A DNA stretch of 64,000 bases from a virus (Duplodnaviria; Heunggongvirae; Uroviricota; Caudoviricetes): the IMG/VR virus record IMGVR_UViG_3300045988_155334. One strand, given 5' to 3'. Both the position numbers and the translations under genes were made by a program. A model generated the notes under the pieces. It was not told the DNA's origin and did not search any database. It saw only the letters and a list, made by a program, of their open reading frames with translations. Below, in pieces: positions 1-3,338 of this stretch. Each line of letters begins with the position of its first letter. The stretch's first letter is position 1.

Positions 1-112
1 TCAGAAGAAAATGCTGCTCCGTTACATTTCAGCCACCCCGTTGGCGGTGTTTCTAAGGGCCATGGAACAGGTACACCAACGGGCAGCGCCGAGCCTTCCC
101 CCAAACCAACGT
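1..112 (-). repeat. Start-less second copy of a tail-fibre C-terminal linker segment (direct repeat of 518-629), cut by the window edge
   Basis: About 92% identical to 518-629; minus strand encodes VGLGEGSALPVGVPVPWPLETPPTGWLKCNGAAFSSE versus S residues LGLGEGSALPVGVPVPWPSATPPTGWLKCNGAAFSSE; begins just after the S stop in a different frame with no start codon. Confidence 0.5.
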
Positions 113-114
113 TT

Positions 115-1974
115 TTATGCCGCCCTTACGATGTAATTAAACGCAATGTTGCGTGGGCGATTTTCATTTGCTGTTGGAACAATTTTTGAAGCATCAAGGC
201 CGATCACTTTTGGGTAAACAGCGCCGTCTGCCCTTTCAGTCACCATACTTTTGACTAAGGAGAAATAACTATTGTTTGTGGAGGGATTTAAAGGCACCAC
301 AGCCCCCTTAAACGTGCTCATTCCTTCCCATATTGAATAATTTTCAGTATTTACAGTTCTGAACTCACCATAGATATTACGTATGGCATCGCCCTGAGCT
401 GATAATATTGCTCTCCCCGCATCCACACCACGCCCATCATCCCAGCCACGGATAAATTCACCGCGTAAATCAGGCAATTTATTTGTCGGGTAAGCCTTTG
501 CCAATTCCGGGTATTCTTCAGAAGAAAATGCTGCGCCGTTACATTTCAGCCACCCCGTTGGCGGTGTGGCTGAGGGCCATGGAACAGGTACACCAACGGG
601 CAGTGCCGAGCCTTCTCCTAAACCAAGGTAATCAAGAACGCTCTGAATACTGGTCTTACCAAGAATGGCGCGTCCAACACTTGTCAATGCAGTTAACGCG
701 GCACGATCAACACCTGTGAAATAAGGGAGTTTATCTGCTGCTGTAGCTAGTGCCGCTAGAGCAGTGAGCGTAGCGTCTGCCGCTTGCTTTCCATTAGCCA
801 AATCATATGCAGCCTTGACAGCTTTCGGTGTGGCGGCCAGCACTTCGGACGTGCTATTGGTAGCACTACTGAGCTGAACTATCCCTTTTTGTGTCGTGGT
901 TGCATCCTGGGCTGTATACTTCCCGTTAGCCAGGTCGTATGCAGCCTTGACAGCTTTCGGTGTGGCGGCCAGCACTTCAGACGTGCTGTTAGTGGCACTA
1001 CTGAGCTGAGTGATGCCTTTCGCTGTCAATGAAGCTGTTGGTACACCAGTGATCTGATTCCAGGGATGTGTATGACTGGATGGTGCCTTTCCGGCTGCTA
1101 GATCGTATGCAGCTTTAACCGCTTTTGGAGTTGCAGCTAATGTTTCAGAAGTGCTGTTGGTGTCGCTACTGAGCTGAACTATCCCTTTTTGAGCCGTGGT
1201 TGCATCCTGGGCTGTATACTTCCCGTTAGCCAGGTCATATGCAGCCTTGACAGCTTTCGGTGTGGCGGCCAGCACTTCAGACGTGCTGTTAGTGGCACTA
1301 CTGAGCTGAACTAATCCCTTTTGCGTTGTGCTTGCATCCTGCGCCGTATACTTGCTTTTCGCCAGATCGTAGGCTTTTTTAACTGCCAGCGAACTCGCAG
1401 CAACATCACTTCTGGTACTGGTTACAGAGTCTGAAATATCAATGCCGATCGTGCGGTTGATACGCTCGGATGTATCAATCATCTCTTGAGTAATGGTAGA
1501 TACGCCAGCAGGGATATTCACCGTACAAACCAGCAGTTCCCCATCACCTAACTGATATGAATCGGTATAGGTTCTGGCAACAAATTCAGCTGCATGAATA
1601 TGTGACGCGGTATTCACCTGATAGGTATCTTCTCCAAGAAGGTATCTTCCCTTCAGCACAATTGCATATTTCTTGCCTGCGTTAAGTGCAAGAGAGATAT
1701 CCTTACGATGCTGAATAGTTACCTGGTAGAATTCACCAATATCCACTGACGCTGCGCCAGCGGTTTTATCTCCATCCACTGAGGTGATTAACAGGTTCAT
1801 CCCACCGCCAGGCTTAGGCAAGAAACCAGCATAAAATCCCGGGTCAACAATTCCCCTGAATTTTCGGTTTAGAGCGGCTGACAGATATGGTTCGTGGTAT
1901 TGCACATCAGACACCAGAGCCAACGACTCGGGTGATGGGTAAGTAACCGATGTAACAACTGTAACGTCATTCAT
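115..1974 (-). CDS. Tail fibre protein (S-like) with tandem phage tail-fibre repeats and tail-collar-like C-terminus
   Basis: ORF 115-2061; ATG at 1974 preceded by AGGA and 12 nt after upstream stop; 4-5 repeats of ~35-40 aa (GIVQLSSATNSTSEVLAATPKAVKAAYDLANGKYTAQDATT); C-terminal LPDLRGEFIRGWDDGRG motif. Confidence 0.8.
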   Translation of the reverse strand: MNDVTVVTSVTYPSPESLALVSDVQYHEPYLSAALNRKFRGIVDPGFYAGFLPKPGGGMNLLITSVDGDKTAGAASVDIGEFYQVTIQHRKDISLALNAGKKYAIVLKGRYLLGEDTYQVNTASHIHAAEFVARTYTDSYQLGDGELLVCTVNIPAGVSTITQEMIDTSERINRTIGIDISDSVTSTRSDVAASSLAVKKAYDLAKSKYTAQDASTTQKGLVQLSSATNSTSEVLAATPKAVKAAYDLANGKYTAQDATTAQKGIVQLSSDTNSTSETLAATPKAVKAAYDLAAGKAPSSHTHPWNQITGVPTASLTAKGITQLSSATNSTSEVLAATPKAVKAAYDLANGKYTAQDATTTQKGIVQLSSATNSTSEVLAATPKAVKAAYDLANGKQAADATLTALAALATAADKLPYFTGVDRAALTALTSVGRAILGKTSIQSVLDYLGLGEGSALPVGVPVPWPSATPPTGWLKCNGAAFSSEEYPELAKAYPTNKLPDLRGEFIRGWDDGRGVDAGRAILSAQGDAIRNIYGEFRTVNTENYSIWEGMSTFKGAVVPLNPSTNNSYFSLVKSMVTERADGAVYPKVIGLDASKIVPTANENRPRNIAFNYIVRAA

Positions 1975-2498: not shown

Positions 2499-3338
2499 TC
2501 ACGCATCGCTATCCAACAGCAAATCATCTGCGCGGGTGCGATCAAACGTAGGCGTTGCTTTCACAATAGTGCCGCCCGGCGTTGCAGTGATCGGGGCGTT
2601 AATCGACGTAACTTCAGTAAGCGAAGTTGTATCCGAAGTTTCAAACCAGCAGAATGCTTTTTCGGTATCAGAAATCTCATTCAAAGTGATCATGTCGGCC
2701 TGTTCATTTACAACAACCGACAAATAGAGCGTAAGCCCATCAAACACTATATGCAGTGGCAGTAGAGGCTTTACGAACTGATTAAACTTTCTGAGAATTT
2801 CTTCTGTAATTGCGGACTGATCTATCGATCCAGTAATACCCATTGTCCGGGCCAGGTCGTTTATGGGAATACTGATCATTCCTCTGGAAGTCAGAAACAT
2901 CTCGCCGAATGTGCCGCCGGTGGTTTCCAGTGTGCTTTCTGGAATCAGGACCGTGCCATAGGGATGTCGTTCAAAGTCCACCGGAGCATATATGGGATCC
3001 CATAAAACCGATATACCGTTAAATTCGCGATAAATTGTCTGGTTTATAGGGCGTTCAGTACCCTTAAAATGGATCTCATCAAACCGCTGTTGTAACAACA
3101 TCGGAACGGAAGATGAATTCGACGTTCTGATAGTAAAAAACTGGCCAAGTTCATTTGTCCTGGTCTCCAGATCCTCCTTGCTCATGGAGAAAATAGACTT
3201 CCGGTTGGTAATTCGCTCCAACCATGGGTCAACAAAGGTGTCCATCATTGACTGAACCAAATCAGCCAATGATTTATAAAGCAATGACTTTTGCTTAGCT
3301 GATGTAAGCCGGTTATTAAACCAGGAACGTTGCATCAC
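2499..3338 (-). CDS. Baseplate wedge protein, gpI-like (P1 gp16-like by position)
   Basis: 279-aa ORF following the gpJ-like gene, the typical W-J-I baseplate order of P2/Mu-type myoviruses. Confidence 0.45.
   Translation of the reverse strand: MMQRSWFNNRLTSAKQKSLLYKSLADLVQSMMDTFVDPWLERITNRKSIFSMSKEDLETRTNELGQFFTIRTSNSSSVPMLLQQRFDEIHFKGTERPINQTIYREFNGISVLWDPIYAPVDFERHPYGTVLIPESTLETTGGTFGEMFLTSRGMISIPINDLARTMGITGSIDQSAITEEILRKFNQFVKPLLPLHIVFDGLTLYLSVVVNEQADMITLNEISDTEKAFCWFETSDTTSLTEVTSINAPITATPGGTIVKATPTFDRTRADDLLLDSDA

Follow-up and report, generated by a model that had tools for sequence, protein, structure and literature searches.

Inversion of tail-fibre gene segments by invertases of the Din type is textbook knowledge. 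Din-family invertases that work with a Fis-bound enhancer, such as Hin, Gin and Cin, strongly favour crossover sites in inverted orientation. The Min system of the Escherichia coli 15T- plasmid p15B was reportedly described by Sandmeier, Iida and Arber in 1990 and 1992. Min is a serine-recombinase shufflon of tail-fibre 3' ends and is related to Cin and Gin (PMC6109161). The mix sites of p15B, six in number, are tabulated in Table 3 of PMC3241671; judging by the names of the sites (mixQ''R', P''Q', O''P' and N''O'), p15B in its reference configuration carries silent cassettes that are directly oriented behind gene S.

Other described systems are related to Min to varying degrees. The C segment of P1 is a single 4.2-kb segment with two inverted sites, two Mu-like Sv+U sets and inverted repeats of 0.6 kb. 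PacBio reads of strain EC958 showed the inversion of tail-fibre genes with Phage_fibre_2 and Collar domains in E. coli prophages, and the inversion sites read ...TTACCTT GGTTTAGGAGAA and ...AAACGTT GGTTTGGGGGAA (PMC4134206). The R64 shufflon, which depends on Rci, and the bifidobacterial Rin shufflon resemble the locus discussed below in that a constant 5' gene is combined with several alternative 3' ends through overlapping inversions; unlike it, they employ tyrosine recombinases and unrelated sites (short asymmetric sfx/rix). Recent experimental work has dissected tail-fibre shufflons in which the inversions depend on Gin-like enzymes (PMC13418256).

The stretch of DNA analysed here, referred to as the window, is 64 kb long. 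Its left end carries three genes on the minus strand, namely gene 16 (2499-3338), R (1986-2420) and the tail-fibre gene S (115-1974), which encodes 619 aa and terminates with TAA at 117-115. The gene 16/R/S region is 95-98% identical to P1, P7 and SJ46 from ~1228 rightwards, and the window is therefore taken to belong to a P1-like phage-plasmid. The homology to P1 and P7 ends at ~1228, and the 3' part of S does not resemble that of P1. The features of S and of its 3' flank are summarized in Table 1. The Phage_fiber_2 match in the constant part, Sc, has an E-value of 2.4e-89 (Pfam), and Sc terminates inside a Leu codon, CTT (627-625), which spans the crossover dinucleotide. The expressed variable cassette, Sv 'a', is composed of a conserved head, a Collar domain (S residues 461-508, E=7.7e-15, Pfam), a variable middle and the conserved tail NYIVRAA followed by the stop codon. 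It is related to solved structures of short and long tail-fibre proteins, including 9cuy (E=5e-26) and T4 gp37 (2xgf, E=8e-18). Neither S nor the invertase of the relatives described below has an NCBIfam match above the cutoff.

Table 1. Features at the left end of the window.
Feature	Position	Strand	Basis
Sc, constant 5' part of S, about 449 codons, five Phage_fiber_2 repeats	627..1974	-	ORF, translation, Pfam
Expressed variable cassette Sv 'a', 169 aa + stop	115..624	-	Translation, Pfam Collar
Repeat copy within S: variable-side half of crossover site + conserved cassette head	518..629	-	Repeat comparison
5' head of silent Sv cassette (GLGEGSALPVGVPVPWPLETPPTGWLKCNGAAFSS...), cut by window edge	1..107	-	Translation; identity to relatives' heads
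Mix-type 26-bp crossover site at Sc/Sv junction, TTCTCCTAAACC AA GGTAATCAAGAA, central AA 625-626	613..638		Half-site comparison, pattern scan
Second mix-type site, TTCCCCCAAACC AA CGTTTTTATGCC, central AA 108-109	96..121		Half-site comparison, pattern scan

The first 112 nucleotides of the window repeat an internal part of S. A direct repeat of ~92% between 1-112 and 518-629 had been pointed out in an earlier note on this DNA, and the alignment bears it out, with 104 of 112 positions identical (92.9%) in direct orientation and without gaps (BLAST within the window, E-value 3e-44). The same search returned no third copy across the 64 kb. The longest unbroken identity is 32 bp, and the pattern of the 8 differences is not adenine-specific. 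The earlier note also described the copy as beginning right after the S stop codon, in another frame, lacking a start codon and running off the window, which agrees with the frame analysis: the reading frame of 1-112 stays open up to the window edge, is offset by 1 base relative to that of S (517 = 3x172+1), has an in-frame stop immediately upstream and contains no ATG. The length of 112 nt is dictated by the window edge, as the conserved cassette head of complete relatives measures about 210-225 nt (first ~75 aa). Two details of the earlier description need correction. Translation places 518-629 at S residues 449-486 rather than ~479-515, and the segment is not a linker in front of the receptor-binding domain, since it takes in a crossover site, roughly 10 residues and the opening ~25 residues of the Collar domain (Pfam).

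The identity of the two copies halts at the central AA of a 26-bp crossover site, and the flanks past this AA are unrelated. The two sites share one orientation, and the site at 96-121 overlaps the stop codon of S. A degenerate mix-site pattern has 2 matches in the 64 kb, against 0.07 expected by chance, and both are these sites. Their half-sites were compared with the mix half-sites of p15B (Table 3 of PMC3241671). The site behind S is built from exact p15B half-sites: TTCCCCCAAACC occurs in mixN''O', mixQ''R' and mixMl''L', and CGTTTTTATGCC occurs in mixMr''N', mixO''P' and mixP''Q'. At the junction of Sc, the Sc-side half GGTAATCAAGAA is identical to its counterpart, the Sc-side half of mixQ''R', while the variable-side half TTCTCCTAAACC differs at two bases from the TTCCCCCAAACC of the same p15B site, so that three of the four half-sites in the window are identical to published ones and the fourth has two mismatches. 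The invertase-proximal flank CGTTTTAGTCTT of mixMl''L' (PMC3241671) is also present in the relatives.

The junction site additionally aligns with cixR of P1, TTCTCTTAAACC AA GGTATTGGATAA, which lies at the end of Sc as well, and the annotated Cin crossover of P1 falls between the two central A residues of cixR. Read on the coding strand, the point of exchange falls within a Leu codon (...GAT TAC C/TT/ GGT TTA GGA GAA), and joining Sc to any cassette at this point preserves the frame (D-Y-L-G-L-G-E-G). To judge from its sequence, the cassette in the window, which has neither promoter nor start codon, would thus be able to fuse in frame to Sc at the central dinucleotide.

These observations, together with the relatives discussed below, indicate that window 1-112 is very probably the beginning of an alternative, silent 3' cassette of S in a multiple DNA-inversion system of the p15B Min type on a P1-like phage-plasmid. 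As in p15B, a constant Sc on a P1-like backbone is fused to one of several alternative 3' cassettes of ~0.5 kb, and some isomers have silent cassettes directly oriented behind S. On this reading the feature is an ordinary state of Min, a system described since 1990. The earlier note had likewise called the copy a silent cassette, and this part of it stands; the copy has neither a start codon nor a promoter. The window itself holds two sites in one orientation, and tblastn with P1 Cin detects no Cin-like gene in it; the multiplicity of cassettes, the inverted sites and the invertase are therefore deduced from relatives.

The closest relatives were reached through an exact-protein look-up, in which the identical 619-aa S protein was found to be encoded on four contigs. 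All four run on downstream of S into further Collar-domain cassettes, which lack promoters and measure about 0.5 kb each. Behind S, the two long contigs carry 7-8 more cassettes, then one assembly gene and finally an intact invertase gene. The cassette 'genes' called in these two contigs have 136-167 aa and match only Collar in Pfam, and the single tail-fibre assembly gene U belongs to Caudo_TAP (Pfam). Complete plasmids show the same layout, and in all complete relatives the invertase lies directly beyond the array; the order beyond it is holin, lydB and darA, as in P1. Crossover sites occur in both orientations in the long contigs, with 8 sites in one (L002) and 9 in the other (L003), and also in four further relatives (L001, L007, L010 and L012). 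The recombinase of the relatives is a protein of 190 aa with serine Resolvase and HTH_7 domains (Pfam) and is 74% identical to P1 Cin. At its 5' end, within the first 90 bases of the gene, 58 of 72 positions are identical to the annotated inversion enhancer of P1. This very protein belongs to the UniRef cluster that bears the name of Q05517_ECOLX, 'DNA-invertase', and at least 1000 contigs encode it. A Din-family serine invertase adjacent to the array and a central segment with an assembly gene, both seen here in the relatives, are further features held in common with p15B. By analogy with the relatives that encode the identical S, we infer that the invertase and further cassettes lie to the left of position 1 in this genome, and that inversion is active.

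The earlier note had suggested that the rest of the cassette, together with a chaperone, an invertase or a reverse-transcriptase gene, might be sought to the left. In the identical-S relatives this expectation holds for cassettes, found there in both orientations, for the assembly gene and for a serine invertase. It does not hold for a reverse transcriptase: neither this nor any other diversifier is present among the genes called within 10 kb downstream of the identical S gene. A diversity-generating retroelement is rejected on this ground, and also because the differences between the repeat copies are not adenine-specific. A shufflon of the tyrosine-recombinase kind (R64 Rci, Rin) is rejected as well, since the recombinase of the relatives belongs to the serine Resolvase family and the sites are of the Din type.

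The locus shares with the Cin system of P1 and P7 the gene S and the location of the crossover site where Sc ends and, in the relatives, a homologous invertase with a putative enhancer inside its 5' coding region. Unlike the P1 C segment, the relatives have many short Collar cassettes, one assembly gene and sites pointing both ways. The P1/P7 Cin C segment was rejected as an identification, given that the sites of the window are direct, the cassettes are of the Collar type, the relatives possess a single assembly gene and the identity to P1 and P7 ends at ~1228. The earlier note was right in stating that this is not a C segment of the P1 type, as the units are short Collar cassettes rather than Mu-like Sv/U sets. 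Phi2 of EC958 (PMC4134206) is alike in its domain architecture and in the sequences of its sites; it differs in being a two-site, single-segment switch in a chromosomal prophage, whereas the present system is a many-site array on a P1-like plasmid.

The anatomy of the cassettes was established by mapping all sites and translating all cassettes in the window and in six relatives; the locus L009/L011 was read from the annotation table alone. A cassette starts with the right half-site GGTTTRGGRGAA, followed by the head GLGEGSALPVGVPVPWP(S/L)(A/E)TPPTGWLKCNGAAFSS... The conserved Collar domain reaches about residue 75 of the cassette and is followed by a variable middle of 50-85 residues. The cassette ends with the tail RPRN(I/V)AFNYIVRAx and a stop codon, and then with the left half-site ...AAAACG. 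Cassettes of the relatives have 143-178 aa. The TTG 'starts' that are called for them correspond to the Leu codon of G-L-G-E-G. The minus strand shows nothing resembling a promoter or a terminator from S to the silent head of the window, which led us to reject the reading of the copy as an independent gene.

It may be asked whether the 112-nt copy is no more than a defunct vestige, in a genome whose array or invertase has been lost or truncated to the left of the window. Truncation or rearrangement of cin and C segments is on record for P1-like plasmids (PMC6906374). Moreover, the exact junction of the window, which consists of the tail of 'a', the mix site and the 1-112 head, has 0 matches in the viral and genome contig collections and is absent from the loci of the relatives compared, including the four identical-S contigs; the best match among complete E. 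coli or plasmid records reaches no more than 95.8% identity. A dead relic is nevertheless most unlikely. The mix site is perfect, and the silent head is identical over all 112 nucleotides to the head of the first silent cassette in L001 and is also identical to the heads of cassettes C and E in L003, that is, to heads of intact relatives. In addition, every one of the four identical-S contigs continues into cassettes, and the two long ones reach an intact invertase.

The arrangements of the relatives are informative about the way in which such a cassette would be used. If cassettes are labelled by their variable parts, with U for the assembly gene and min for the invertase, the two long identical-S contigs read Sc>a>B>C>D>E>F U G<H<I<min (L003) and Sc>a>F U G<C<D<B<E<I<min (L002). 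The other mapped relatives read Sc>a'>C>D>J>B>E>F U G<I<min (L001), Sc>a>H>E>F U G<I<B<D<J<min (L007), Sc>J>C>H>F U G<I<min (L012) and Sc>a'>I>B>H>I>J>D>K>D>C>G U' F<K<min (L010). Every mapped relative thus has its own order and orientation of a shared set of cassettes under one grammar, in which forward cassettes lie on the S side of U and reverse cassettes on the invertase side, and F and G flank U in every case. Cassette J is silent in L001, L007 and L010 and is fused to Sc in L012, from which it follows that silent cassettes reach the expression site. A site-by-site check in L002 and L003 shows that the left half-site of each site is that of the tail of the preceding cassette, as is predicted by exchange at the central dinucleotide. 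These arrangements are the products expected of reciprocal exchange between one forward and one reverse site. The differences among isolates show past inversion, not present activity.

In the proposed mechanism, Min, a Din-family serine invertase closely related to Cin, Gin and Hin, would exchange strands at the central AA/TT. The partners would be the site where Sc ends and any site that is inverted relative to it; everything between them would flip, and a new cassette would be joined to Sc in frame (...D-Y-L/G-L-G-E-G...). The unit that is moved would comprise the right half-site, the conserved head, a variable receptor-binding middle, the tail with its stop codon and the left half-site, and the central block of cassette F, U and cassette G would flip in every inversion. 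A forward silent cassette such as that at 1-112 would not be usable directly. A first inversion would have to carry it past the centre, where it would be inverted, and a second inversion could then fuse it to Sc.

The consequences of this scheme were enumerated in a model in which every inversion pairs one forward with one reverse site. Six sites, corresponding to four free cassettes and the F-U-G centre, give 240 isomers, which is the isomer number of p15B. A nine-site array like that of L003 gives 80,640 isomers, and L003 minus cassette H is converted to L002 in four model inversions. Every model inversion flips the centre, in agreement with the occurrence of U in both orientations: of the plasmids sampled, 11 have it co-oriented with S and 3 have it reversed (L010, L016 and L018).

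The earlier note had proposed a different reaction, in which the direct repeats recombine, the current C-terminal domain is deleted and S becomes fused in frame to another downstream domain. In terms of the array, the direct heads or the two direct sites would recombine, the 517-bp expressed cassette would be lost and Sc would be joined to the next cassette. Several observations are compatible with such a deletion. The copies are colinear without gaps, so that a crossover inside them would yield an in-frame fusion, and their 32 bp of uninterrupted identity is about the minimum for RecA. The relatives also vary in the number and content of their cassettes: they carry 6 to 13 sites per locus, cassette H is missing from L002, and three cassettes are duplicated in L010, which implies that whole cassettes are lost and gained over evolutionary time. 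Together with the variable pairing of heads and bodies described below, this points to crossovers of the proposed kind, or to gene conversion, on an evolutionary scale. As the main programmed switch, however, deletion is very unlikely. It cannot be undone and would deplete the repertoire, yet arrays of 6-13 units persist in hundreds of plasmids; the differences between plasmids are permutations and changes of orientation that obey the inversion grammar, not nested deletions. The preference of Din-family invertases for inverted sites also speaks against it, and deletion is not needed to reach the silent cassette. Deletion between the direct copies may still occur as an in-frame, rare and irreversible event. 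Of the host-range switch that the earlier note envisaged, the outcome is retained, as an exchange would change the receptor-binding tip; the mechanism by deletion is not, because the arrangements of the relatives fit inversion.

The possibility of an assembly artefact also deserves consideration, as reads of mixed inversion isomers could have been misjoined into a junction that is present in no molecule. Mixed isomers are known to cause spurious contigs and duplications (PMC4134206), the duplicates of three cassettes in L010 are suspicious, L015 and L021 are odd linear records, and the window starts exactly inside the repeat, as would a contig broken at a repeat. Even so, this explanation is barely conceivable. 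The succession of tail, mix site and head is the normal one at every cassette boundary in all loci, so that even a chimeric join would mimic a configuration that the system can adopt. The interpretation as a Min-type cassette is, besides, independent of which cassette follows S.

One respect in which the relatives differ from p15B is the size of the array, with 6 to 13 sites in the former as against six in the latter. We also note that the heads, which occur in PSATPP and PLETPP variants, are not always paired with the same bodies, and recombination other than exchange at the mix core therefore also occurs. It is possible, though we put it forward as a tentative and rather doubtful proposal, that Min-type arrays are now far larger than that of p15B, that they undergo turnover by non-programmed recombination in the heads, and that selection favours isomers in which U is co-oriented with S. 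The first part draws on the relatives, which have up to 13 sites as against the six of the p15B prototype, and on the figure of about 80,000 isomers for a nine-site array. If the second were true, homologous or unequal recombination in the direct heads of ~210 nt would delete cassettes, duplicate them and re-pair heads with bodies; this would be the very reaction that the earlier note proposed. If the third were true, selection would act at infection, the sample at hand comprising 11 forward and 3 reversed orientations.

The configuration also has practical implications for the reading of genome records. Annotation pipelines call the silent cassettes 'phage tail protein' genes with false TTG starts. 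Assemblers break or misjoin at the cassettes, and a contig that ends inside a cassette head, as the window does, is thus to be expected. Cassette-like sequence was detected in 1561 of 5426 complete E. coli genomes. With the system being this common, as the count of contigs carrying the invertase also indicates, a single assembly does not reveal which tail-fibre tip a P1-like phage-plasmid expresses. Related cassettes also sit on chromosomes in many E. coli genomes.

Two variants of the cassette head, …WPSATPP… and …WPLETPP…, are present in six of the relatives' loci carrying a Min-type array (L001, L002, L003, L007, L010 and L012), and in these loci neither the head variant nor the right half-site variant is bound to a particular cassette body. 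Body D, for example, follows a PSATPP head in L001 and a PLETPP head in L002, L003 and L007. Since heads and right half-sites are not tied to bodies, the comparison of sequences implies that the conserved heads would undergo gene conversion or homologous exchange, besides exchange at the mix core, the central dinucleotide of the 26-bp crossover site.

Of 5426 complete E. coli genomes, 1561 contain sequence resembling positions 1-700 of the window, and 2501 such places lie on chromosomes. Judged by this distribution, Collar-cassette tail-fibre switches of this type are widespread not only on P1-like plasmids but also among chromosomal prophages.

The constant part of the tail-fibre gene S contains a direct repeat of ~223 nt in three copies; measured against the reference copy, the other two show 87% and 71% identity. 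These code for the Phage_fiber_2 repeats of S (five Pfam stretches). The wide spread of annotated S lengths among relatives, from 538 to 1007 aa, suggests that the number of fibre-shaft repeats varies between them.

Among the sampled plasmids, the single tail-fibre assembly gene has the same orientation as S in 11 loci (L001, L002, L003, L007, L009/L011, L012, L013, L015, L017, L019 and L020) and is reversed in three (L008/L010, L016 and L018), whereas the inversion model predicts ~50:50 (two-sided binomial p ~0.06). The excess of the co-oriented arrangement may mean that isomers in which the chaperone is co-transcribed are favoured by selection at infection, or it may be due to sampling. The start of the assembly gene overlaps the stop codon of cassette F only (ATAATG).

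Cassettes I, D and K are each present twice in the array of L010, the K copies in opposite orientations; either they are truly duplicated, or mixed inversion isomers were wrongly assembled, a hazard noted in PMC4134206. L021, in which a P1-like U/U' layout is joined with several Collar cassettes, is a hybrid of the Cin and Min types. The additional gene R of L015 is possibly an assembly artefact.

Coordinates of shaft repeats, unusual arrays and recombinase remnants
Locus	Record	Coordinates	Feature
Window		787-1441	~223-nt repeats
L010	NZ_CP196102.1	57800-68900	13-site array; record marked linear
L021	NZ_CP173482.1	1-12041	two convergent assembly genes, several Collar cassettes
L015	NZ_CP027133.1		linear record; second gene R copy, inverted, beyond array
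L008		1098-1275	recombinase pseudogene fragment
L020		2778-2906	recombinase pseudogene fragment

In L008 and L020, the intact invertase gene is closely followed, on the other strand, by a short fragment of a second recombinase/DNA-invertase pseudogene.
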